A DNA stretch of 19,632 nt from Candidatus Vampirococcus lugosii (GCF_018420025.1 NZ_JAEDAM010000011.1:1-19632); one strand, 5' to 3'. Shown: positions 2,381 to 19,243, counted from the stretch's first letter. Notes: generated by a model from the letters alone, not told the origin. Program-made: numbers and translations.

Positions 2381-4153
2381 ATGATCAATAATATAGATAA
2401 TAGAGATATAAATACACAAGAAGATCCAGAAAAAGTTTGACAACCACAATTAGATAATTTTGAAAAAAATCAAGATATTGAAAAAGTAGTTTCTGAATTG
2501 AAAGAAGAATTTAGAAATCTTGCTGAATCTTTGGATACATGAGATGAATGAGAGTCAATAAATTTTTATGTAGATAGAATGAATAGTTATTTGAATGAAA
2601 ATTATAATTGAATAAAAATTGTAATAGATGAAGATTGAAATTTAGAAGTTAAAAATCATGAAGCAGATGAACTTTTAAAAAAACTTGATGATGAATTACA
2701 ATCATTATATTTGGATATAGAAGAATCAATTGATTCTTGAAATGATTTGTTGGATGATCAAGAATTTGCTTGAAAATCTTCATGAGAACTTTTGCAAATG
2801 TCAAATCAAAATAATTCATTATTATATAATAATATAATAAAAGAAAGTGAAGATTGAAGTTTAAATGTTGATTTTAGATGAAATGAGTGAGCAGAAGATA
2901 ATATTTGATTATCAGATATCTTGGCAGAAGATGTTAAATCAGTAAAAATTACTTCTAGTGATTGACAAGTTAGTGAATGAAATAGAGTATGATTAAAATG
3001 ATGATTTTATGATGCTTGATGAAATTATTTAGCTATTTTTAGCTGAGATAAAGTAGAAATCACAGAAAAATATGAAGAACAAGAACTTGAAAAACTAAAA
3101 GAAGCAAATAGTGAAGCTATAAATTCTTTTATGGAAAGGGATGAAATAAAAGAAATGTATACTGAAAATTGAGAAGTTATAGAAGGAAAAAAAGAAGCTA
3201 TATGATTAGCTGTATCAATGGCAGAATCTTATGATCTTGATCCAAATTTATTATTATCAATTTGATTAAATGAATGAATTTTTGAATGAAATATGTGAAT
3301 AATGAATTGAGATTTACAAACTCTTGATTGACAACTTGTTATGCTTTGTAGAAATGTTCAATCAAGTTTTGTCAAATGAACATCTCAATCAAATGAAAAT
3401 TGAGATTGAATAATAAATACAGATGATATTTTGTATTGAATAAATAATGCTTGATTGAGATGATTTTGATGATCTAATTATGATTTTTTATGAAAAATTG
3501 TTGAATCATATTGGACTTTATCTTGAAAAGAATTTACAAATAATGATTTAAAATGAGTGATAGATAAATACAAAAATTCAAATATAAATTTTTCTAGTAT
3601 AAATCCAGAAAATTTAACAATGTGAAATTTAGATATTAATTTACCTAATTTTGAATCATTATTAACTACTCAATGATGAAGAGATTATATGATGTATAAA
3701 GATAGTATAGAACAAATGTGTGATAAACTTAAAATTCCTCCAGAAGTTTTATTGCAATTATTTATAAAAGAATGAAGTCGTTGAAATCCTCATGCATCTC
3801 CTTGAACATCTAGTGCAGTTTGACTTTGACAAATAATAGATTGAACTTGGGAAGGTATTACTAAATCATGATGAACAGCATCAAAATATGGTATTGATTG
3901 AATAAAATTTGATAGATATGATGCAGGACATCAAATAATATGATCGGCAGTTTATCTTAGAGAAATGTATGATAAATTTTGAAGTTGGTGAAAAGCTATG
4001 GTACATTATCATACATGACCTTGACAAATGACAGATTCATATGCACAAAAATGTGCAAAATGGAATCCAGCTATTGAAAGATGAATATCATGACCAATCA
4101 CAGCTCAATCATATTACAATTCTGCAATGAAATATTATACAAATGTTGTTTAA
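2381..4153 (+). CDS. lytic transglycosylase (SLT/GH23 domain) protein, 590 aa, long acidic Gly-rich N-terminal region, no visible signal peptide
   Basis: ATG 2381, TAA 4151-4153. The whole frame was read by hand with no TAA/TAG and dozens of TGA. The C-terminal domain carries the GH23 signature LFIKE(3770-3772)GSRGNPHASPGTSSAVGLGQII...YHTGPG, and the invariant G of A-x-G-L-x-Q is a TGA (3821-3823). The N-terminus MINNIDNRDINTQEDPEKVGQPQ is hydrophilic. Confidence 0.85.
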
Positions 4154-4182
4154 AATTAGCTTTTAAAAACTAATTTTATTTT
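4152..4182 (+). terminator. weak candidate intrinsic terminator after the transglycosylase gene
   Basis: 8-bp all-A/T stem aaaattag (4152-4159) / ctaatttt (4170-4177), followed by T-rich attttct. The stem has low stability and overlaps the stop codon. Confidence 0.3.
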
Positions 4183-4442
4183 CTATTTCTTTTTGATTTC
4201 CTTCAAGATAATCTATTGCTTTATATAAATTATTGTATTAAATTGATTAATAATTTTGAATATTTATAAACTTCAGAATGTTAACTTATTTTAACTAGTT
4301 TTTGATTTGATTAGATATTGCATTGTAATAAAAAAATATAATTTCAAGATAAAACACATCGATCTTCGCTATTACAAAATAATTTATTTTTACAAAATTA
4401 AGATTAAATATTTTATTATTTAGAAATTAATGAGTTAAAAGA

Positions 4443-7400
4443 TTATTATACAAATTTTGTAAATGTATCAGGTTTTTCTGAGTTTTTTTTATTATTTCAA
4501 TAATTATTTTTTAAATAAGATATTTCTAATACTTTTCAAATTTCAAAATCAATCATAGCAATTCATTTATCTCATAAAACTTTTCAAGTATCATCAAAAT
4601 TATTAATTTTTCAAATTTTTAAATCTCATATAGTATATATAACTTCTCAAGTTTTGGAATTAATTTTTGCAATTCAAGTTTCTCATACAATTTTTCAATT
4701 AGAACTAAAATTATTAATATTTCAAATATCTAAATATCAAGTATTATAAATAATTTCTCAAGTTTCAATATCAATTTTGGAAATTCAGTTTTCTCATATA
4801 ATATTTCAATCATAACTAAAATTATTGATTTTTCAGATTCATAAGTTTCAAGTATTATATTTAACTTTTAAAGTTTTTTTATCTATCATACTAATTCAAT
4901 TTTCTCATTTAATTAATCATTTGTCATAGAATTTATTAATTTTTCAAATTCATAAATCTAATGTACTATAAATAATCTCTCAAGTTTCAAAATCAATTTT
5001 TGCAATTCAATTTTCTCATATAACTCATCAATTTGAATAGAATTTATTAATTTTTCAAATTCATAATTCTAAAATACTATAAATAATTTCTCAAGTTTCA
5101 ACATTAATTTTTGCAATTCAAGTTTCTCATATAATTTTTCAATCATTATCAAAATTATTAATATTTCAAATACCTAAATCTCAAGTATTATATTTAATTT
5201 TTAAATTTTTTGTATTAATTTTTGCAATTCAAGTTTCTCATATAACTTTTCAATCATTATCAAAATTATTAATTTTTCAAATTCATAAATCTCAAGTAGT
5301 GTGTTTAACTTTTAAAGTTTTTGTATCAATTATTGTAATTCAAGTTTCTCATATAATATTTCAATTGTTATCAAATTTATTAACTTTTCAAATTTTCAAA
5401 TTTCATGTACTAGACTTAATTTCTCAAGTTTGAATATCAATTATTGTAAATCAAGTTTCTCATACAATTCATCAACTTGAATAGAAACTATTAATTTTTC
5501 AAATTCATAAATTTGGAATAGTATAAATAGTTTCTCAAGTTTTGATATTAATTTTTGCAATTCAAGTTTTTCATATAATTCTTCAATCATTGCTAAAATT
5601 ATCAATTTTTCAAATATCTAAATCTCAAGTATTATAAATAATATCTAATGTTTTGACATTAATTTTTGCAATTCAAGTTTCTCATTTAATTTTTCAATCA
5701 ATATCAAAATTAATAATTTTTCAAATACCTAAATCTCAAGTATTATAAATAATATCTAAAGTTTTTGTATTAATTATAGCAATTCAAGTTTCTCATATAA
5801 CTTTTCAATTAGCATCAAAATCAATAATTTTTCAAATTCATAAATTTGAAGTAGTAGATTCAATTTGTCAAGTTTTAGTATTTATAACTGCAAATCAATT
5901 TTCTCATTCAATTCATCAAGTTCAATAAAATCATTTAATTTTTCAAATACCTAAATCTCATTTATTATAATTAATTTTTCAAGTTTCAATATTAATTTGA
6001 GCAACTCAAGTTTCTCATATTATTTTTCAAGCATTATTAAAATCATTAATTTTTCAAATACCTAAATCTCAAGTAGTATATTTAACTTTTGAAGTTATTA
6101 AATTAAGTAAAGCAACTCATTTTTCTCATATTATTTTTCAATCATTACTGACATTAAGAATTTTTCAAATAACTAAATCTCAAGTATTATATTTAATATC
6201 TAAAGTTTTTGTATCAACTATAGTAAATCAATTTTCTCATATAATTTGTCAATCTGATATAATTTTTCAATCAAAAATAAAATCAATAATTTTTCATATT
6301 CATAAATTTCAAGTATTAGCTATAATTTTTCAAGTTTGAATATTAATTATTGCAATTCAAGTTTCTCATACAATTCATCAATTTCAATAAAAATCATTAA
6401 TTTTTCAAATACCTAAATTTCATTTATTATAAAGAATTTTTCAAGTTCCAACATTAATTTTTGCAATTCAAGTTTCTCATATAATATTTCAATCATAATT
6501 AAAACTAATAATTTTTCATATTTCTAAATCTCATATAGTATAAAAGATTTTTCAAGTTTCAATATTAATTTTTGCAATTCAGTTTTCTCATATAATATTT
6601 CAATCATAATTAAAATTACTAATTTTTCAAACACCTAAATCTCAGGTAGTATAAATAACTTTTCAGTTTTTGACATTAATTTTTGCAATTCAATTTTCTC
6701 ATATAATTTTTCATTTATTATTAAAATTAATAATTTTTCAAATACCTAAATCTCAAGTATTAGATTTAATTTTTCAAGTTTTGACATCAATTATTGCAAT
6801 TCAATTTTTTCATACAATTCATCAAGTTCAATAAAAAGATTCAATATTTCAAATACCTAAATCTCAAATATTATATTTAATTTCTCAAGTTTTGACATTA
6901 ATTTTTGCAACTCAATTTTCTCATTTAATTAATCAATCATTATCAAAATTACTAATATTTCAAATACCTAAATCTCAAGTATTATATTTAATTTCTAAAT
7001 TTTTAACATTAATTTTTGCAAGTCAATTTTCTCATTTAATTAATCAAGTATCATCAAAATTAATAATATTTCAAATACCTAAATTTCAAGTATTATATTT
7101 AATTTTTCAAGTTTGAATATCAATTATTGCAAGTCAATTTTTTCATAAAATTCATCAACTTGAATAAAATCATTTAATATTTCAAATACCTAAATCTCAA
7201 ATATTATATTTAATTTCTCAAGTTTTAAAATTAATTTTTGCAACTCAATTTTTTCATATAATTTTTCAATCATCATCAAAATTAATAATATTTCAAATAT
7301 CTAAATTTCAAATACTATAATCAACTTCTCAAGTCTCAAAATTAATTTTTGCAATTCAATTTTCTCATATAATTTTTCAATTTTTATCAAAATCAATAAT

Positions 7401-8573
7401 ATTTCAAATATCTAAATTTCAAATACTATAATCAACTTCTCAAGTTTCAAAATCAATTTTGGCAATTCAAGATTCTCATAAGATATTTCAATTTTTATCA
7501 AAATCAATAATATTTCAAATATCTAAATCCGAAGTAGTATAATCAACTTCTCAAGTTTCAAAATCAATTTTGGCAATTCAAGATTCTCATAAAATATTTC
7601 AATCATTATCAAGATTAATTATTTTTCAAATATCTAAATCTCAAGTAGTATAATCAACTTCTCAAGTTTCAAAATCAATTTTGGCAATTCAAAATTTTCA
7701 TAAAATATTTCAGTCAGATTCAAGATTAATTATTTTTCAAATATCTAAATTTCAAGTGGTATAAATAATATCTCAAGTTTCAATATTAATTTTGGCAATT
7801 CAAGATTCTCATAAAATATTTCAATCAGATTCAAAATTAATTATTTTTCAAATATCTAAATTTCAAGTAGTATAAATAATATCTCAAGTTTCAATATTAA
7901 TTTTGGCAACTCAAGATTCTCATAAAATATTTCAACCAGATTCAAATCTATCAACTTTTCAAATATCTAAATTTCAAGTACTATAATTAACTTTTCAAGT
8001 TTCAATATTAATTTTTATAATTCAATTTTCTCATATAATTTTTCAATTAGTTTCAAATTTATTAACTTTTCAAATACTTAAATTTTGAATTATATTTATA
8101 GTTCATTTCAATTTATTAACATATATTATATGTCCAGATTCAGATTCCCATAAATTTTCACAAATTTTATTTAATTTTCAATATTTTTTTTGTAGTTCTA
8201 TATTGGATATTTCATTGTTTGGATCTAACTTTAAAACTCCCAAAATTTTATTAGTGATACTATTATATCAAATATCGCTTAAAAGTTTTTTTAAGAAATT
8301 AGAACTATTTTTATCAACTTTTTTTCTTAATTTTCTCAAAAATGTTTTTGCTTTAGCTTGAAACAGAGGTAAACTAAATAAATCTTTTAATTTTTTTTTT
8401 CATTTATCATCTATATTTGAACTCATTTGAAATAATGAAATAATATTTTCAATTTCTTTATCATCTTTTCATATATCTTTCAATACAATTCATAATCATG
8501 TCGCAAAATCATCACTTACAAAAACTTCATCTAAATCAGAACAATCTTGACTAATTTCATAGTTATCTATCAT
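4443..8573 (-). CDS. giant tandem-repeat protein, 1376 aa: unique N-terminal region of about 160 aa, then 32 x 37-aa glycine-periodic repeats, then a short tail; possible beta-solenoid; unknown function
   Basis: ATG 8573..8571 is preceded by an in-frame stop at 8577-8579; TAA at 4445..4443. All triplets with low coordinate = 0 mod 3 across 4.1 kb were checked and contain no TAA/TAG. By hand count there are about 205 in-frame TGA. N-terminus: MIDNYEISQDCSDLDEVFVSDDFATGLGIVLKDIGKDDKEIENIISLFQ... (no signal peptide or TM helix). Repeat consensus: G-K-I-I-N-F-(D/E)-x-(D/N)-G-(N/K)-I-(L/I)-G-E-x-G-I-A-K-I-(N/D)-(F/I)-E-T-G-(E/D)-(V/I)-x-Y-x-x-G-x-L-x-I. C-terminus: ...IAMIDFEIGKVLEISYLKNNYGNNKKNSEKPDTFTKFV. 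Confidence 0.85.
4520..8100. repeat. 32-copy tandem array, unit 111 bp (one unit is 129 bp), lying entirely inside the 4443..8573 CDS
   Basis: The (c/t)tcat landmark occurs at 4571, 4682, 4793 ... 7919, 8030. That gives 30 intervals of exactly 111 bp and one of 129 bp (6236 to 6365). Every interval is a multiple of 3. Units are diverged at scattered positions, except for a nearly uniform block at about 7364-8030. Confidence 0.95.
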
Positions 8574-8618
8574 TATTTAAATATTTTGATTAAAAAATTA
8601 AATTAAATTTAACATTAT

Positions 8619-8648
8619 GTTATATATATAAAAATATATATTTGTCAA
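8619..8648 (-). promoter_or_regulatory. candidate promoter for the giant repeat gene
   Basis: Minus-strand TTGACA at 8648..8643. TATATA/TATAAC-like -10 candidates lie 16-18 nt downstream (about 8626..8619), roughly 45 nt before ATG 8573. The -10 is not distinctive in this A/T background. Confidence 0.3.
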
Positions 8649-8934
8649 TAAAAAAAAACTTTTTTTTATCTCATACTTGTATGACTAAAATTTGTAAACA
8701 AAATTATAAACTGAAAAACATAATGTATGCCTGGTTAGAAGTAGTTGAATATATATTACTTAATTAAAAATTTTCCGAAATAGTATATTTATACTTAAAA
8801 AACAAAAAATTTCATTATAATAAAAAAATTATATTAATAATTCTATTTTTACTTTTTTACTGATATTTTAAATTTACCAGCATAAAAAATAAAAATATAC
8901 TTGAAATTTATTATAATTTTTTTATACTTCTTTA

Positions 8935-8965
8935 TATAGCACTAATATTATTTATGTGCTATAAT
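8935..8965 (+). promoter_or_regulatory. CIRCE-like inverted repeat (candidate HrcA operator) overlapping an extended -10 upstream of clpB
   Basis: Perfect 8-bp arms tatagcac (8935-8942) and gtgctata (8956-8963) with a 13-nt spacer. This gives TAGCAC-N13-GTGCTA, the same core and spacing as CIRCE (TTAGCACTC-N9-GAGTGCTAA). The right arm runs into TGcTATAAT (8957-8965), 33 nt before ATG 8998. No good -35 box was seen. Confidence 0.5.
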
Positions 8966-8997
8966 ATGAAAATTTTAAATTTTAAAATAAATAAAAT

Positions 8998-11604
8998 ATG
9001 AATTTTGAAAAATATACGATAAAAGCTAGTGAAGCAGTTAATCAAGCACAAAGTAATGCAATAGAAAATAATAATAATGTAATAGATGTTTTGCATATTT
9101 TAAATTCTATGTTTGAACAAGAAGATTGATATATACCTGCTATACTTAAAAAATGAAATTTTGAAATACAAAAAATACATAATGAAATAAAACAATGAAT
9201 AAATAGTTTACCAAAAATTGAATGATGAAAATATCAAATTCAAGTTTCTTATGATTTAAATCAAGCATTTATAAATGCCGAAAAACAAGCAAATAGTTTA
9301 AATGATGAATATATTACTACTTATCATATATTTTTGGCCATATTGAAATGAAACTCAAAAGCAAATAAGGAAATATTACAAAAAGAATGAATAAATTATA
9401 AAAATATTTTGGAAATAATAAACGAAATTAAAAAATGAGATTCAGTTCAAAGTGTAGATCCAGAAACTACTATGGATTCTTTAAATAAATTTGGTAGAAA
9501 TATTACTGAACTTGCAAAAAATTGAGATTTGGATCCAGTAATTGGTAGAGAAGACGAAATAGCTAGAACTATACAAATTCTTTCTAGGAGAACAAAAAAT
9601 AATCCAGTACTTACTGGTGATCCTTGAGTTGGTAAAACTGCTATTATTGAATGAATTGCACAATTAATAATTAAATCTGAAGTTCCTGATATTTTAAAAA
9701 ATAAAACAATAATAGAACTTGATATGTCAGCTTTGATGGCATGAACTAAATATAGATGAGAATTTGAAGAAAGATTGAAAGCTATATTAAAAGAATTAAA
9801 TAAATCTAAATGACAAATAATTTTATTTATAGATGAAATACATAATATAGTATGAGCTGGTAAAACTGAATGATCTATGGATATGTGAAATATGATAAAA
9901 CCTGAACTTGCTAGAGGTAAAATTAGAGTAATATGAGCAACTACTATTAATGAATATAGAAAATATGTAGAAAAAGACCCAGCTTTGGAAAGAAGATTTC
10001 AACAAGTTCATATTGATCAACCTAGTAAAGAAGATGCATTAGCTATTCTTAGATGAATAAAAGAAAGATATGAAGCTCATCATTGAGTAAAAATTACTGA
10101 TTCTTCACTTATTTCTGCTGTTGATTTATCTGAGAAATATATTACTGATAGATTTTTGCCTGATAAAGCTATAGATTTGATAGATGAAGCTTCTGCTAGT
10201 GTAAAAATGGCTCTTACTAGTATGCCTACAGAAATTATTAAATTAAAAAAACAAATTACTCAATTAGAAATTGAAAAACAAGCAATAATAAGAGATCAAT
10301 GAAATACTAGTATAGATAATAATAGAATGCAAAAACTTGAAAAAGAATTAGCTAGTGCAAAAGAAAATTATGAAAAATTAAAAATTAATTGGGAAACAGA
10401 AAGAGAATATGTAGTTAAAGTAAAACAATTAAAAGAAGAATTACAAAAATTAGAACATCAAGCACAAATAGCAGAAAAAGAAACAAATTACAATAAAGTA
10501 GCTGAAATTAGATATTGACAAATTCCAAAATTACAAAATGAATTATCAGAAATAGAAAAAAAAGTAGAAAATTCAAAAAAAGATTCTAGTATTAAAATTA
10601 AAGATATTGTAGAACCTGAAGATCTTGCACTAATTATAAGTAAATGGACACAAATTCCTGTTTCAAAACTTGTTGAAAGTGAAAAAGAAAAATTAGCAAA
10701 TATTGAAAAAAATATATCAACAAAAGTTGTTTGACAAGATTTTGCTATATCAGCAGTTGCAAATGCTATTAGAAGATCAAGAGCTTGATTGAAAGATCCA
10801 AATAAACCAGTTTGATCATTTCTTTTTTTATGACCAACTTGAGTTGGTAAAACACAACTTGCAAAATCATTAGCTGAATTTCTTTTCAATAATGAAAAAT
10901 CTATAATAAGATTAGATATGTCAGAATATATGGAAAAACATTCTGTAAGTAAACTTATTTGATCTCCTCCAGGATATGTTGGTTATGATGAAGCTTGACA
11001 ACTTACGGAAGCGGTAAGAAGAAAACCTTATTCTATAATACTTTTTGATGAAATAGAAAAAGCTCATCCAGATGTATTTAATGTATTATTGCAATTATTG
11101 GATGATTGAATACTTACAGATAACAAATGAAAAACTGTTAATTTTAAAAATACTATAATAATTCTTACTTCAAATATAGGTTCAGATATGATAATGGAAA
11201 AACTTAGTAATTCACAAGATATACAAACAAGAAAAGAAGTTGAAAATTGAATAATGAAACAACTAACTAATTATTTTCGTCCAGAATTTATAAATAGAAT
11301 AGATGACTTAATTATTTTCAATCCTATAAATGAAGAAATGTTGAAAAATATTGTTTCTATAAATTTACAAAAAATTAATGATATGCTTTATTATGATAGA
11401 TGATTAAATCTTGATTTTGATGATGAAGTTTTAAAATATTTGGCAAAAGCTTGATGGGATCCTGCATTTGGTGCTAGACCTTTGGATAGAGCTATACAAA
11501 AAGAATTATTAAATCCATTAGCAATGTCTATTATGCAATGAAATATTAAAAATAATTCTAAAATAAAAATAAATATACAAGATTGAAAAATAAGTATAAA
11601 TTAA
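8998..11604 (+). CDS. clpB: ATP-dependent chaperone/disaggregase ClpB, 868 aa
   Basis: ATG 8998, TAA 11602-11604. The full hand translation shows Walker A1 GDPGVGKTA (9616-), Walker [14 protein letters not shown], a long coiled-coil middle domain, Walker A2 GPTGVGKT (10831-), [24 protein letters not shown] and GARPL. Track ORF 10327..10518(+) is an in-frame fragment between two TGA codons. Confidence 0.97.
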
Positions 11605-11632
11605 AATTAAATTTTATATTATTAAAAAAAAA

Positions 11633-11669
11633 AGATAAAAGTACAGTAAAATTACTTTATCTCTTTTTT
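11633..11669. terminator. bidirectional intrinsic terminator between convergent clpB and the PBP gene
   Basis: Stem agataaaagta (11633-11643) / tactttatct (11653-11662): 10 bp with one bulged A and a 9-nt loop. It is followed by cTTTTTT (11663-11669) and preceded by an A-run (about 11624-11632) that supplies the U-tract for minus-strand transcripts. Confidence 0.55.
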
Positions 11670-11725: not shown

Positions 11726-13411
11726 TTATAAATTATTAACAACTAAATTCCAAAGATATCAAGCAGTATTTACTCAACTATCCATCATAGCAGTTCAATT
11801 ATAATTTCAAGCCCACACACATACTATCAATCATTTTTGTTTATTTGCACCACAAGTCCATCAATCAACAAATCTTCTTGAAGTTCATGTTTTTACAGCC
11901 CATCAAGGTACAGACATAAAACTATCTATCCCAAAAGATAAATTTCTATAAGAATTTTTTGTCAAAATATCATAAACTTCTTTTATTTGTACTTCATAAG
12001 AATCTAGAAAATCATATTCATTTATATCAAAAAATATTTTCCAAAGTTTTGCAAAATTTAATGGACTCATTTCATAAGTTCATAAACCAGCAGATAATCA
12101 TAAATTTCTTTCATTAAAAAATTCATGATTTTTTTCTAATTTATCTTTATTTTCTTTTCATACATTAATTCTTAATTTTTCAATAAAATTTATATAATTT
12201 CATACTCATACATCATTTAATAATTTTACAGTAGGAACATTTAGACTACTTCATAAAGCTTGTGCAAGTTTCACATCTCAAGCATAAGTTTGAGAAAAAT
12301 TTTTGGGTGCATAAATATTTTCTCATTCCAAAATATATTCTATAGGTTTATCTTCCAATATAGATTCTGAATTTAAATTTAATTCTTTCATAGCATACAA
12401 ATATAAAAAAGGTTTGGCAACTGATCAAGTTTGTCTCCTAGAAGTACAAGCATTTACCTGTCATGCAAATAAATCTTCATAAGATCTACAAATATTCATA
12501 GTCAAAACTTCTCAAGTATTATCCAAAACTAATATACAACAATCATTCATTCATTGCATATTTCTATATTCAAAAGTATTTTTTATGATATTATTTATCA
12601 TATTATGTAAATCTAGATCAAAGTTTTTAGAATTATTATTTTTTGAAGATTGAATATAATCTACATAATGATTTGCCAAATTATCAAAATTATGATAAAT
12701 ATCATTTGAAGACAATGGTGGCAAATTATATATATTTTTACAAATATTATCACTTACAAAATCAAGATTTGATATTTGATTACAAAGTAATTTAGATCTT
12801 TTTTTTAATTGATCAAAATTATTATTATTTAAAGGATTTGTACCAGTTTGATATATTGAAACCAAAAACAATAATTCAGACAAAAATAAATTTTCACAAT
12901 TATTATCAAAATAAACTAAACAAGCACTATTTAATCATCTTACTTGATTTGGAAATTCCAAATTATTTATATAATACAAAAATATATCTTCTTTTGAATT
13001 ATGTGTATTTAAATTTATAGCAATAAAATTTTCTTTAATTTTCTGCAAAATACTTCTATCAAAAAAAGCAGATTGCGATAATTTTATTGATTGCTGATCT
13101 ATAGTACTTGCTCATTGTCTATTTCCCAAAAATATATTTGAATGAATAGCTCTTGATATTGCTTTTATATCAATTCAAAAATGTGAATAAAATCTTTTGT
13201 CTTCTATTTCTTTTATTATTTGATTAATATTATTTGGTATACTATTATAATTTTCATAAGAAATATTTTTAATTCATTTTAATATATTTCATTTTGAATC
13301 ATATATTAAATTTTCTGTATTATCTTGCAATTCATATTCATACAAAAAATTAAATAAGAATAAAAATATAAAAAACAATACAAAAATTATAAAAGTCAAT
13401 TTTTTTTTCAT
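11726..13411 (-). CDS. pbpC: bifunctional class A penicillin-binding protein (GT51 glycosyltransferase + transpeptidase), 561 aa; PbpC-like by synteny with the upstream alpha-2-macroglobulin
   Basis: ATG 13411..13409, TAA 11728..11726, no in-frame TAA/TAG (checked). N-terminal TM anchor MKKKLTFIIFVLFFIFLFLF. GT51 motifs EDKRFYSHFGID (about 13171-13205) and RQGASTIDQQ (about 13091-13120). Transpeptidase motifs S-V-A-K (RQTGSVAKPF, about 12407-12440), S-L-N (ALGSSLNVP, about 12228-12260) and KTGT (about 11883-11899). Shorter than E. coli PbpC, with no extra C-terminal domain, so the symbol is tentative. Track ORF 12551..12883(-) is an in-frame fragment. Confidence 0.9.
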
Positions 13412-13450
13412 AAAATTAGAGATTATAAAAATAAATTCAATATTTGATCT

Positions 13451-16400
13451 CTAATTATTCAAAACTTTTCTTCAATGAACTTGAGTATCATACATTTCAA
13501 AAAATCTAGTAGGCATTATATTAAAATTACCATTAAATGAGTTTATTCATTCAAAAATTATTTCACATTCTGTTCAAGATTTTATACTATCATAATACAA
13601 GAAAAGTCTATCAAATCTTGATTCATAATGCGACGGCGAACATCTTCTTCATCATTTTATTTGAAAAGGTTCTGAATCATCAAATTTTGAAATATTTCAA
13701 AGTAATTTAATATTTGCTGGAATAAAGAATTCTACTGCAACTTGTGATGCATCTTTAGTTGTTGCAAAAGATCCTGTCAAAATTGTTCTATCACCTACAG
13801 AAGTATCTTTTTCTATTTCAAGATTTAATTCTGATAATCATTCAAGATAACTTTCCAATTCACCAAAATCATTTGGTAAATATGAAGTTTTCATATCTAT
13901 AAATAAGTTTTCATTACAATTCCATGAAGTTTCCAAATCTCATTTGGATTTATCAGATAAATCAATTTCTTGTGATATATTTTTAATTTCATCGGATAAA
14001 GTATGTTTATGAACTTCTCAATCAACTGTAATATCACAAGATATATCATCACTAGACTTAATTTTTAATATATATTTTGACAATGATGATATTATTTGCA
14101 TATTTTTTTGAGTTGACCATCACCAAATTCATTTATTAGTTCTATTTTCCAAAAAATCAGTCACTAATCATATTATTTCTTGATTATAATTTTCAAAATC
14201 ATATTCAATTAAACTTGAAAGGTATATTGATTGTAATATATCTTTTCAAATATATTTACTATATGATCTTGAATATTTTATTTTATCTAAATCTATTTGT
14301 TCAAGATATTTAACTGCTTGTTCTGAATCATTAATATTTGCAAATATTGCAAAAGCTAAGATTGCTAATCTAGGTTCATCATCAATATTGTCATCAATTA
14401 TTTGTTTAATAAGTTCAATATTAATATCTTTATTAACTAAAGTTCTATTATAAATATAATATGCATAAGCAAGTATATTATTTGATCATATTTTATCTAG
14501 AAAAGATTCTAAACTTGACATAAAACTTTTATCTACTTGATATCATAGACTTTCCAAATGAGAAAATACCGAATAAACATAACTACTTAAATATATAGTA
14601 GAACTTTCTCATGCTCTACTCCGATATCACATTCATCAATCAGATTTTTGATTTTGATATATTTTATCAGCTGTTTCCAAAAACATTTCATTGAAATCAA
14701 CAAATCATCTAGTTCATCAAACATTAACAGAATTTCATCTTACTATATTTTCTGAAATCAATCATTCTTGTCAAAGTTCCCATGCAAGCAATGAAGGATA
14801 AAGTCAACTCAACATTTGTTCTGTACATCCATAAGGATATCTTACCAAATAATCCAAAGCTTCTTCAAAAGCATTTATAGGCATATTAGACAAAGATAAA
14901 TCCATAGATAAATATTCATATTCACTTGGCATCTTGAAAATATGTTTTCATTCTTTATTTGAAGTAAAGAAAAAATCATTAATTTCAAATCATGAGGCTC
15001 TAATAGGTATTTTCCATTCTACTATATCTTTAAATTGATCATCACTAGCAGTGATAATAAACTTTACCCAATCATCTTGATATATATTATTTGGTATATA
15101 AACATCAAAATTTGTATTTATTTCAGAATCAGAATTTAATTTATTTGTTCATAAATCTACTTGTGTTCAATCTTCAAATTCCAAAAATCAAGAAACTTCA
15201 ATTTCATCAGATACATCAAAATCAGAATCTAAAACTACATTTACAGGTAATTTAATACTATCTCATAAAGTAAGAAATAAAGGCCAATTTGGATTTAACA
15301 TTATAGCTTGTTTTGTTTGAAAATATTCTCTATTTGTTCATATTTTTTGATTTTTATCATATCAAATAACATCAATCATCCAAGTTGTTAAATTATCTGG
15401 CAAATCAAAATCTAAATTTGCTTTACCATCTACAACATCTAAAGATCAAGTCCAATAAGCAGTATCTTTAAATTCTGTTCTCAAAGAAAGTATTCTAGAA
15501 ATTCAACCTCATCATCATTTTCTACCTCAAGTTGTATAAACTTTTAAACTATCAAAAAGCATTTTCATATTTGAAAAATTGGAAATGAAACTACCAACTT
15601 TATTATAAAAATATGGAATTGGTTCTTTAATAATATCATATAAATCTATCAAAGCTTTATCTACTACTGCCAAAGATACTTTTGCATTAACAGGATTTCA
15701 ATAATTATCATTAACAAAAACATCTAAAGACACATTTTCTCCAGGAGTATATAAATCTTTATTAGCTTCTACATCAATATTTAATTTAACAGCTGATTCA
15801 TCAATATTAGCTTGTGCATATCAAATCATAAATCTAGGTTCTTTTCTTTTATTTTCTCAATCTACATTATCCAAAACAACCGTTTCAGGTACAAGTTTTG
15901 ATACAGAAACATTTACATAAGGAATATATTCTTCTTTTGTAGGAATAGTTATTTTGTTTCAATCAAGAGTTTTTTCATATGTATCAAGAATTTCATTTCA
16001 TTTTTCTACTGTAATAATTACTTTTGCATCATTAATATATGGATTTACATTTATTTCTATTTCTTCATCTAGATCAAAACTTTTCCTAGGTATATTTACA
16101 TCCAAAACAATATTATTATCAATATCTCACCAATATCAATAATATGAATATCATCTATATGAATGTATTCTTTTTTGTGTTTCTCAATTTATATTTCAAT
16201 CCTCTCAATAAGAAATTGTTCTTAAAAAATATTGTCAAGAATCCGATAAATCCAAATTTATACTAAAATTTCAATCTTGATGAGATATTTCTTTTTTTTC
16301 AATTTCTTCAAATTCATATCAAGCTATATAATAATAACTTCAATCTACTCATTTTTCTTGTTTATGTCAATAATCTCTTTTGTACAAAATATATTCAAGA

Positions 16401-19138
16401 GATTCGGATTTATTATTTTTATCAATAATTTCACCTCTAACTAAATATTCATCTTCACTATAATTGTAATCTACAGATTGTCAATCTAGCCCAATTTTTA
16501 TTTCTGCTGGAATTTTTTCATAAAATGTAAGCAATCTAGATTCATCAGAGTTATTATCTGTAATATATAAATCAAATTTAATATCAAAATCATATCATCT
16601 ATTTTGTATTTCACTAAGATCCATAATTTCCAATGAAAAAGTTTCTTTATCAAGATTTTCATATGAAAAATTTCATCCATCAGTATGAATATTACCAAAA
16701 ATATGATTATAAGTATATTCTTTATCAGACCACCAATAACACCGCCAACATTTATCTTCACTAACTATTGAATAATCAAGTTCTATATCATAATTAGATA
16801 AATTTTCTCAAAAATAATATTTAGGATCAATTTGTAAATAATATTTATCAGCTTTTGAATACATATTTGTATCTACAAAATAAGTTGGTTTTTGATATTC
16901 TTGTATCTTTATATTATGAGAATAAGAAATATCATCTGTAAAAATATATTTAATAGTATAATCTCAAAGTTTAGCAGATTTAGGAATTTGAAAACTTCAA
17001 TCAAATCATCAAAATTCATCAAGACTTAAATTTTCTACTCTCTGTATTTCATTACTAGAATGTGATAAAATAGCATTAATATTTCATTCACTAACTGCTC
17101 AAGAATAAATATCGCTCACAAATCAAGCAAAATAAATTTCATCTCAAGGTTTATAAATAGCTCTATCCGTATATCAATAAGTTCTAATAATATCCATATT
17201 ACCTTTTTCTTTATCCATTCATATATCACTACTATCTACAAAAGATGTAATTCTTAAATTTTTGTACAAATCGTTTTCTCTATGATAATACCATAATCAT
17301 CAAGATTTTCTCAAAACAATAAAATTTTGATCATTTCATTTTGAAACTTTTATAAGCAAAACATCGGAATCTATTTCTGATAAATCTAATTTATATAAAG
17401 AATCTATTCATATTTCATATTTAATATTTTCAAATTTATCATCATAAACTTGTATATGTAATTCTTCCAAACTTTTTCCTGTATACATATCATAACTAAA
17501 AAGATACATCATATCTCCTGCTAATTTTACAAAATTTCAAATATCTGATCTAGTAAAATATCTACTTGATCTAAAATCTTCAAAAAATGAAATTCTATAA
17601 TGATTTAAATCACTTACTTGTGGAATAGAAACATGTTCATCATAGACTTTCCAGTATTCAAAATCATCTTTTATATATTCTACTTTTTGTATTTCAGCAT
17701 TACAATCAAGAAAATATTCTTCTATTCATGAAGATCATTTTTTTGTAAAATCAGCTTCTCATAATTCACATCATTGAATATATAAATCTAGTTTATCGTA
17801 ATTTTGAAATCACAATCTAATTTTATCTCACCAATATCAAGTTCTAGAAACTAAATTATATCTTTCTGTATACAAAGATCAAAATTTAAATCAATCAGGA
17901 ATTTCTTCTATATTAAAATCAAATTTATGAGTTGATTCATGTCAATAAATTGATTTTAATAAAATTTCTCATTTGTAATCTTGTCATGGAATTGGACGAT
18001 AATTTATAGAAATACTATTTTCTTTTACATTATAATCATAATATCAACTACCAAAAAAACTTTCTAAAGTTTGATCAAGTCAATGTCAAGTCAAATTAAA
18101 ATTTGATGAAATTTCAAATTTTAAATTTGATTCATTATTTGTAAATTCTGTTTCAAAATCTGCAACTTCAAAAGACATACTATAAGAGAAACCACTATCA
18201 TCAACCATTAATAATAAATAATCACCTGCATCATCTGTTTCAAAATCAAAACTTACATTTCAAGTTCAATATTTAAAATTAGATAACTCGTATTTTTTAA
18301 ATAATTTATTATCAATATCTTTAATATTATAAAAATCTGCCAAATCTTCTATATTATTTACTTCATCATTTCACATATAAAATCATAATTCATGAAAATT
18401 TAAATAATTTTCCAAATCAATATCTTTTTCTTCAATAACTCAAAATTGTTCCATATCTAAATCAATTTCTTCTGGTTTATCTATATATTTTACTAAATAT
18501 GCATTTTTCAAAAACTCATCTTTTTTATTAATTTTGAAAGAATCTAATTCTATATCCACCCAAAAACTTTCTCATACAGGCAAATCACTATTTATAATTT
18601 TTGTATTACTTGATAAATTCCTAGAAAAAGTTCAAAGAGATTCCGATCAATATTTCAATCAAATTTTTTCAAAATCTTTTCGCAATCAATAAAAATCTAA
18701 TTCTGATACAGTATCTATCATTTTACCACTTTGAAAAACATAATTTTTATCTTTTGCATATCAATTTCTTCACACTTCAAAAGTGTGTGGATCAGCATAT
18801 CTAAGTCAATATCATTCTTGAAAAGTTGATTCATTATCTTTAACATCATCAATTTCAATTTTCTTTCAATTGTAATATACATATATATTATCTTTTGAAT
18901 ATCTTTGTCAGAGATTTTCTTTCTCTCAATAATTAAGTTCATCTTCTGATGATAAAAGATCTTCTACTTCATCTAAATTTTTTTCCTTTTCTTCTTTATC
19001 AAGATTACTAGTATGTTTATTAATTTCATACAAATTAAATCATAAAATAACCAAACAAAAAAATCAAAATATTCATATACTTATAAATTTTATGTTTTTA
19101 ACAACATATTCTTTTATTCTATCAAAATTAAAATTCAT
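13451..19138 (-). CDS. bacterial alpha-2-macroglobulin family protein (thioester-containing protease trap), 1895 aa, N-terminal membrane anchor
   Basis: ATG 19138..19136 with an upstream in-frame stop at 19145-19147; TAG 13453..13451. All 95 sequence lines were checked in frame (low coordinate = 2 mod 3) with no TAA/TAG. Family motifs: YKPGDEIYFAGFV (about 17131-17160), LAVVDKALIDL, GGRKGGGGG..EFKDTAYW, LPDNLTTWMIDVIGY (15361-15406) and thioester PYGCTEQM. The N-terminus MNFNFDRIKEYVVKNIKFISIGIFGFFCLVILGF is a single TM helix with no canonical lipobox. Confidence 0.92.
14816..14827 (-). other. thioester motif Cys-Thr-Glu-Gln (CxEQ) of the alpha-2-macroglobulin
   Basis: Plus strand ttg ttc tgt aca reads on the minus strand as tgt aca gaa caa = C-T-E-Q, within PYGCTEQM. 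It is intact and in frame. Confidence 0.85.
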
Positions 19139-19225: not shown

Positions 19226-19243
19226 TTCCCGCCCGGGCGAGAA
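19226..19243. promoter_or_regulatory. GC-rich 18-bp near-palindrome TTCcCGCCCGGGCGaGAA (candidate operator) in the divergent intergenic region
   Basis: 8 of 9 dyad pairs match. The perfect 10-bp core cgcccgggcg is at 19230-19239, and 19228-19239 is a 12-nt all-G/C run in otherwise almost pure A/T intergenic DNA. Lies 88 nt upstream of the A2M ATG and 73 nt upstream of the + strand ATG. Confidence 0.35.

Follow-up and report, generated by a model that had tools for sequence, protein, structure and literature searches.

The stretch of DNA described here (19,632 nt from Candidatus Vampirococcus lugosii, GCF_018420025.1, NZ_JAEDAM010000011.1:1-19632; hereafter, the window) encodes a giant alpha-2-macroglobulin (A2M) and, directly downstream, a short class A penicillin-binding protein (PBP). 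We think it probable that the two genes constitute the Absconditabacterales version of the classical A2M-PBP1C module, in which a protease trap is combined with a local cell wall synthase. What is new is the conserved, co-inherited linkage of A2M and PBP1C in a single-membraned (monoderm) lineage that reads UGA as glycine, along with a clade of domain-truncated PBP1C proteins, an apparent switch from a lipobox to a membrane helix as the A2M anchor, an N-terminal extension of the A2M, and the joint loss of the thioester and its protective pocket in one sublineage.

A first-pass annotation of this DNA had described an 1895-residue A2M with an intact thioester, followed after 39 nt, on the same strand and in a common frame, by a PBP with GT51 glycosyltransferase and transpeptidase domains. 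It had also assigned a single N-terminal membrane anchor without lipobox to each protein, likened the pair to yfhM-pbpC of Escherichia coli, and placed it in a genome of the candidate phyla radiation (CPR) that uses translation table 25. All these descriptions hold up in the analyses below, for which the feature coordinates are collected in Table 1.

A macroglobulin with an intact thioester motif

The MG2, A2M_BRD, A2M and bMG10 domains of the A2M, like the Transgly and Transpeptidase domains of the PBP, each score above their Pfam gathering thresholds. The thioester motif PYGCTEQM is located at residues 1435-1442, and its CTEQ core (residues 1438-1441) falls into the same alignment column as the CLEQ of the E. 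coli A2M (YfhM or ECAM) and into the conserved column of ten homologs. In ECAM-like proteins, the thioester is shielded by the RDDR and ExMY motifs of the C-terminal macroglobulin domain (CTMG) and by two tyrosines that precede the cysteine (Fyfe et al., 2015; PMC4498604). These elements have counterparts in the window A2M, where direct alignment pairs YPYGCTEQ with YPYGCLEQ of YfhM, RFDR with RDDR (one substitution) and FEMY with SMY. Likewise, a putative bait loop, which is rich in glycine (TTGGRKGGGGGISRILSLRTEF) and variable among relatives in its C-terminal part, aligns with the bait of YfhM/ECAM (GGDGDELKRGGKPPVNHV).

Similarity to YfhM extends over most of the protein. A family profile of 11 sequences, the window A2M included, matched YfhM/ECAM almost end to end (residues 47-1606; E = 6e-154); phmmer with the A2M alone as query gave no match in the PDB, and NCBIfam yielded no A2M equivalog for it. 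We further obtained an AlphaFold2 model of residues 1194-1895 (pLDDT 82.4, pTM 0.80), which includes the putative bait loop; the first-pass annotation had suggested structural modeling of the bait region. The first 24 residues of this model, corresponding to the bait loop, are disordered, and lie at the position homologous to the YfhM bait. In Foldseek comparisons, the best global fits were to native ECAM (5a42, TM-score 0.67), native Salmonella A2M (4u48, 0.67) and an ECAM fragment spanning MG7 to the C-terminus (4ziu, 0.63/0.69), compared with scores of 0.33 for protease-activated ECAM and about 0.29 for C3b. Given the good fit to the native forms and the poor fit to activated ECAM, the model represents the closed, thioester-protected state. 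As judged by its domains, family profile and predicted fold, the A2M is of the ECAM/YfhM type (class 1), but without the lipobox that defines this class.

We also considered a class-2 identity, as in MagD of Pseudomonas aeruginosa and YfaS of E. coli, which share the fold of macroglobulin (MG) domains with the window A2M. MagD, however, lacks the CxEQ motif and any cysteine, and its gene belongs to the magABCDEF operon, which has six genes and no PBP (PMC3735191), whereas the window A2M has CTEQ, a PBP as its neighbor and no mag-like genes nearby; we therefore rejected this assignment. As a separate observation, the cysteine pairs at residues 457/479, 1701/1741 and 1833/1858 are invariant in the three closest A2Ms and are compatible with extracytoplasmic disulfides.

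Table 1. Positions of the gene pair, its domains and motifs, and the adjoining elements (window coordinates; aa, residues of the respective protein)
Feature	Position	Strand	Remarks
A2M gene	13451..19138	-	1895 aa, code 25, stop TAG
A2M N-terminal membrane helix	19037..19093	-	aa 16-34; IKFISIGIFGFFCLVILGF
Clade-specific N-terminal extension	18149..19027	-	aa ~38-330
MG2 domain	16946..17182	-	aa 653-731, Pfam
Bait-region domain A2M_BRD	15641..16102	-	aa 1013-1166, Pfam
Putative bait loop	15488..15559	-	aa 1194-1217; LFDSLKVYTTGGRKGGGGGISRIL, aligned with YfhM bait GGDGDELKRGGKP; disordered in model
Pfam A2M domain	15233..15463	-	aa 1226-1302
All-alpha thioester domain	14063..14878	-	aa ~1421-1692
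YPYGCTEQ motif	14816..14839	-	thioester Cys1438/Gln1441 and two shielding tyrosines
C-terminal MG domain bMG10	13487..13810	-	aa 1777-1884, Pfam
RFDR motif	13607-13618	-	within bMG10; counterpart of YfhM RDDR
EMY motif	13490-13498	-	within bMG10; counterpart of YfhM ExMY
Intergenic spacer	13412..13450	-	39 nt
Short PBP1C-derived class A PBP gene	11726..13411	-	561 aa, stop TAA
PBP N-terminal membrane helix	13343..13399	-	aa 5-23, KKK before helix
GT51 glycosyltransferase domain	12776..13267	-	aa 49-212; EDKRFYSHFG, GASTIDQQ, KIKE and KEDIFLYYIN intact
Transpeptidase domain	11849..12538	-	aa 292-521
Transpeptidase motif SVAK	12413-12424	-
Transpeptidase motif SLN	12239-12247	-
Transpeptidase motif KTG	11885-11893	-
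A-tract/stem/U-tract hairpin	11624..11669		between convergent PBP and ClpB genes
ClpB gene	8995-11604	+

A truncated PBP1C partner

The partner protein has the equipment of a bifunctional wall synthase. The Transgly match in Pfam is strong (E = 5.6e-37), and the GT51 motifs as well as the SxxK, SxN and KTG motifs of the transpeptidase are all intact and conserved in relatives. Its top NCBIfam family is PBP_1c (TIGR02073), of which model positions 14-543 of 728 are matched with a score of 284.4 bits, which is below the curated equivalog cutoff of 494.2. The first-pass estimate that the protein is some 200 residues shorter than E. coli PbpC and lacks its C-terminal domain proved accurate: the difference is 209 residues (561 versus 770), and the C-terminal domain of PbpC (PF06832, BiPBP_C) was not found in the window PBP.

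This truncated form is not confined to the window. A database search returned about 29 short PBPs of 530-581 residues with 34-55% identity, none of them with PF06832, and canonical PBP1C proteins came next in the same search with at most 30% identity. In a neighbor-joining tree (87 sequences, 519 columns, 100 bootstraps), the short PBPs are monophyletic (100/100), and their sister is P0094, a PBP1C from a UGA-recoded metagenome-assembled genome (MAG) of ‘Candidatus Gracilibacteria’ (99/100). A clade of the short PBPs and E. coli PbpC shuts out all sampled PBP1A and PBP1B sequences (100/100). By these sequence relationships, the window PBP is a PBP1C derivative that has lost its C-terminal domain. 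This shows that a PBP1C can work, or at any rate be retained, in the absence of that domain.

A recoded, uninterrupted gene pair

The window is written in genetic code 25, in which UGA encodes glycine, as in SR1/Gracilibacteria. With table 11, just four open reading frames (ORFs) of at least 80 residues are called in the entire 19.6 kb (~22% GC). Long ORFs are recovered once TGA is taken as a sense codon, while reading TAG or TAA as sense gives no coherent gene map. TGA is found at the invariant Walker-A glycines of the neighboring ClpB gene and at the glycine of the KTG motif of the PBP (AAA ACA TGA), and the columns of the A2M that contain TGA hold glycine in 30% of cells in standard-code homologs, against a background of 7% and with no preference for tryptophan. 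It is also the main glycine codon in each gene examined, accounting for 111 of the 132 glycine codons of the A2M (84%; the remaining 21 are GGN) and outnumbering GGN by 25 to 5 in the PBP, 36 to 11 in ClpB and 205 to 15 in a repeat protein described below. The stops of all five genes examined are TAA or TAG.

With TGA as sense, the A2M and PBP ORFs both run uninterrupted from stop to stop, and the corresponding ORFs of relatives contain no internal TAA or TAG. On these grounds we rejected the possibility that either is a pseudogene or an ORF artifact.

Linkage and co-inheritance

The closest named relatives of the ClpB protein (59-63% identity) all belong to Candidatus Absconditabacteria or Absconditabacterales. 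Judged by this marker, the organism is a member of the Absconditabacterales (SR1, CPR), in line with the CPR-type genome of the first-pass annotation.

Contigs of relatives were fetched and scanned by tblastn with code 25; a scan of GTDB genomes returned three loci, of which two are near-identical. In eight of ten related UGA-recoded loci, an A2M is linked to a short PBP. A window-type A2M and a short PBP are no more than a few kb apart in L001, L002/L008, L003/L004, L005, L006, L009 and L010, all of which are UGA-recoded and range from 20 to 43% GC. In the window, L003 and L005, the A2M is followed by the PBP after 9-39 nt; in L006 the arrangement is inverted, with the PBP preceding the A2M by 108 nt. 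In other cases, one gene separates the pair, namely NIF3 in L001 and an opposite-strand gene in L002/L009.

The two genes have also diverged in parallel, with pairwise identities of A2M and PBP across loci that correlate closely (Pearson 0.955, Spearman 0.83; 28 non-independent pairs). Their GC contents of 0.23 and 0.21 are the same as those of their neighbors. Taken together with the heavy use of TGA for glycine, the parallel divergence and the neighbor-like GC content imply that the module is old, co-inherited and not a recent import. The first-pass annotation had asked for co-inheritance to be weighed against lateral transfer from Gram-negative bacteria; the identity correlation, the linkage and the PBP tree favor the former and lend no support to the latter. 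We conclude from the sequence data that, within the UGA-recoded Gracilibacteria/Absconditabacteria lineage, the pair is old and has been passed on vertically as a unit.

Some loci deviate from this pattern. The thioester cysteine is gone only in L002/L009, and there RFDR is replaced by NYDK and EMY by EIY. That the thioester and its shielding motifs decayed together suggests that the thioester is under selection, and functional, elsewhere. In the MAGs concerned (L002/L008 and L009, labeled ‘Candidatus Peribacteria’), the Gly-Cys of the thioester is lost (NYPLTEQ), with a short PBP still nearby, and in lacking the cysteine they recall MagD. The sister of the short PBPs, P0094 (locus L011), retains a faint PF06832 match and, unlike the window pair, has no A2M within 9 kb. 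In L014, a canonical PBP1C (707 residues) is found directly beside an A2M, but in reverse order (PBP1C, then A2M) and in the standard code.

Anchoring at the membrane

Both proteins carry one hydrophobic segment, at the N-terminus. In the A2M, the region preceding it is net positive and the 43 residues following it contain 14 acidic and 6 basic residues, a charge pattern that fits an N-in/C-out signal anchor. The A2M of L005, from a genome with 43% GC, differs from the window and the other relatives in that it (4049-9991 of its contig) starts with a canonical lipoprotein signal (MLQKRAWYGVMVIFLLVGC, ending in VIFLLVGC). This suggests that a lipid anchor was exchanged for a membrane helix inside the clade, and the lipoprotein signal of L005 may represent the ancestral class-1 state, which was replaced by the helix in the AT-rich lineages.

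The helix is followed by a clade-specific, poorly conserved extension of about 200-260 residues; the mature N-terminus of YfhM aligns at about residue 243 of the window A2M. In an AlphaFold2 model of residues 36-662, pLDDT stays below 50 up to about residues 296-305, and confidently predicted beta-sandwich domains follow after residue ~305. A DKNYY match within the extension scored 24.5 bits, just under the cutoff of 25 bits.

Neighboring genes and elements

The spacer between A2M and PBP can form a weak AU-rich hairpin, which does not stand out from shuffled controls (z = -0.25) and is thus not a credible terminator. No terminator-like site was detected in the gap, and the two that were found each lie inside the genes. 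The A-tract/stem/U-tract hairpin that separates the PBP gene from the convergent ClpB gene is a candidate bidirectional terminator, which would close the putative operon. On the other side of the pair, the intergenic region is divergent and holds, about 90 nt ahead of the A2M start, a perfect palindrome made up of G and C only (CGCCCGGGCG, 19230-19239). The palindrome has a SmaI/XmaI site inside and is embedded in DNA of ~20% GC. It is unique in the window, did not arise in any of 200 shuffles and can fold into a hairpin of 7 bp; an operator function or a structural role is conceivable.

The ClpB gene adjoins the short PBP not only in the window, where the two are convergent, but also in the distant locus L013 (11159-13768, same strand, downstream), which suggests that synteny is partly conserved outside the A2M-PBP pair as well.

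Further away, the minus strand carries a code-25 ORF of 1375 residues (4446-8576), in which 205 TGA codons lie in frame (15% Gly). It contains about 32 tandem copies of a 111-nt (37-residue) unit between 4536 and 8085, with higher-order periodicities of 222 and 333 nt. Neither a Pfam domain nor a membrane segment at the N-terminus was found in its product, which may be a beta-propeller-like repeat protein. A 590-residue protein (2381-4153, plus strand; 58 TGA-Gly codons) ends in a lytic-transglycosylase-like signature (EGSRGNP...AVGLGQI), with neither a Pfam nor a PDB sequence match. Finally, two Cys-rich exported proteins are encoded on the minus strand, one of 223 residues with a membrane anchor (298-969) and one of 277 residues with a signal-peptide-like N-terminus (996-1829); neither has a Pfam match. 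No tRNA genes or Rfam elements were found within the window.

Discussion

The pairing of A2M and PbpC genes is known since 2004: thioester-bearing, lipobox-anchored A2Ms adjoin pbpC, and a division of labor was proposed, in which the A2M captures proteases that invade and PBP1C mends the wall (Budd et al., 2004; summarized in PMC3735191 and PMC4498604). Kinship of the window pair with this module, as suggested by the first-pass annotation, is borne out by gene adjacency, alignment and the placement of the PBP in the PBP1C tree. As in yfhM-pbpC of E. coli K-12, the A2M precedes the PBP1C on one strand, although with a gap of 39 instead of 0 nt. The A2M shares the architecture of MG, bait-region, thioester and CTMG domains with YfhM (ECAM) and its Salmonella counterpart SaA2M (PDB 5a42, 4ziu, 4u48), as well as the YPYGC.EQ thioester motif, the shielding motifs (RDDR-like and ExMY) and the position of a flexible, here putative, bait, and in both systems the two proteins are membrane-anchored with extracytoplasmic domains. 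There are also differences. Identity to YfhM is only about 23% over local alignments, some 200 extra residues separate the anchor from the first YfhM-homologous domain, and YfhM and SaA2M are held by a lipid on a lipobox cysteine rather than by a helix. The partner PBP lacks the terminal domain of PbpC. Finally, E. coli and Salmonella have a periplasm bounded by an outer membrane, whereas the host of the window is a monoderm CPR bacterium (PMC8080830).

On this basis, the pair would work as follows. The ectodomains of both proteins, whose genes are probably co-transcribed, would project into the zone of the wall, on the outer side of the only membrane, the cytoplasmic one. There, a protease from the prey or host, or from the predator itself, would cut the bait loop; the cleaved A2M would change its conformation, expose its thioester, bind the protease covalently and cage it, and the PBP1C-type synthase would add or patch glycan strands locally. 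This trap-and-repair function is an inference.

Several observations weigh against this interpretation. The Pfam thioester-domain model found no match in the A2M at E <= 0.01, so that the domain annotation foreseen in the first-pass annotation succeeded for MG2, A2M_BRD, A2M, bMG10, GT51 and transpeptidase but not for this one domain; we nonetheless accept it because profile, alignment and structure support it. No lipobox of the form [LVI][ASTVI][GAS]C, the hallmark of class-1 bacterial A2Ms, exists in the first 60 residues of the A2M, where GFFC does not qualify as one (nor was a lipobox found in the PBP). Co-transcription is plausible and suggested by the 39-nt gap, but scans for promoters and terminators were uninformative in this 22% GC DNA, with 97 promoter-like sites versus 89 +/- 9 in shuffles. 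In L012 and L013, a short PBP occurs with no A2M within 9 kb, and the PBP therefore need not be dedicated to the A2M. Moreover, even for E. coli, wall ‘repair’ by PbpC is only proposed (PMC4498604), and our literature search found no experimental test of YfhM-PbpC coupling.

The short PBPs of L012 and L013, which belong to the same clade, lead directly to the most serious competing explanation, in which the PBP is the main housekeeping class A PBP of the cell, the A2M traps proteases alone and their adjacency is a relic of an ancestral operon. Such a role would suit a protein with two intact and conserved catalytic domains that has shed the domain specific to PBP1C, in Absconditabacteria that have very small genomes and yet retain peptidoglycan synthesis (PMC8080830, PMC13059738), and the pair is split by another gene in L001 and L002. 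Yet the linkage persists in eight of ten loci down to 28-30% A2M identity, despite the inversion in L006 and the insertions, and unless proximity is selected for, its retention through such rearrangements is difficult to account for; we regard the relic scenario as unlikely, albeit with an appreciable chance of being correct. Much less probable is an offensive or adhesive use, where the activated thioester would attach to the prey surface or capture prey proteins for feeding. These organisms belong to a lineage of epibiotic predators whose giant surface proteins are thought to mediate attachment (PMC8080830, PMC13059738), and both the long clade-specific extension and the several A2M paralogs of the lineage (three among the ten largest proteins of V. 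lugosii) could be read in this sense. However, the A2M retains the full ECAM-type trapping apparatus, with putative bait loop, shielding pocket and a native closed conformation in the model, and it has a PBP1C neighbor, just as in free-living Gram-negatives, and no adhesin-type domain was detected in domain searches.

A recent transfer of the pair from a Gram-negative host or prey can be dismissed with more confidence still. Horizontal transfer has been held responsible for the patchy distribution of bacterial A2M genes (Budd et al., 2004, cited in PMC3735191), and the lifestyle of these bacteria involves DNA uptake from the host (PMC8080830). But the TGA codons that make up 84% of the glycine codons in the A2M (111 of 132) would be stops in the donor, and the GC content matches that of the neighboring genes. 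Only two A2Ms in a large protein database exceed 30% identity; the nearest relatives are all UGA-recoded, and the next-closest matches reach at most 22%. The short PBPs are sister to a PBP1C from Gracilibacteria, and both genes diverge in parallel. We therefore rejected recent horizontal transfer, which we consider extremely improbable.

Beyond the protease trap with a local wall synthase, which we continue to prefer, we tentatively consider an extended version that we ourselves rate as rather unlikely: the pair might be a conserved envelope system of monoderm, UGA-recoded CPR predators that operates at the exposed cell surface, with the membrane helix as its anchor and the lineage-specific N-terminal region as a stalk. 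If true, the module would need neither an outer membrane nor a periplasm, in contradiction to the ‘outer-membrane breach’ model. It might guard the predator where it meets its prey and is exposed to a lytic cocktail, or even fasten onto the prey via its thioester.

Parts of this picture have been drawn before. Moreira et al. (2021; PMC8080830) reported that the Absconditabacterium V. lugosii has just one membrane along with a ‘Gram-positive cell wall structure’, and that its A2M-domain membrane giants ‘may play a defensive role’ against host proteases (PMC8080830). Three A2M-family proteins rank among its ten largest, and a supplementary table of the same study lists VAMP_19_245, which at 1895 residues equals the window A2M in length, the match being one of length alone. 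Together with VAMP_6_203 and VAMP_95_65, it shares order-level lineage, genetic code and protein family with the window A2M. Homologs have furthermore been reported from Absconditabacterales, other orders of Gracilibacteria, Paceibacteria and WWE3 (Zhou et al., 2022; PMC9793634). Since the A2M-PbpC pairing, the presence of A2Ms in Vampirococcus and Gracilibacteria and their defensive interpretation are all published, the novelty of our findings is limited and their significance moderate. The first-pass view that the pair is noteworthy in a CPR genome consequently holds only in part: the A2M and its reading were known (PMC8080830, PMC9793634). For this lineage, the PBP neighbor, the state of the thioester and the type of anchor go unmentioned in PMC8080830, PMC9793634, PMC3735191 and PMC4498604, and our literature search returned nothing on PBPs in Absconditicoccus or CPR.

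The conservation of the module in a monoderm lineage suggests that its benefit is independent of an outer membrane. These epibiotic predators therefore provide a natural test of the trap-and-repair idea, and natural variants for such a test already exist among the relatives of the window A2M: those in which the thioester and its shielding motifs are both gone, and one that has kept the lipoprotein anchor.

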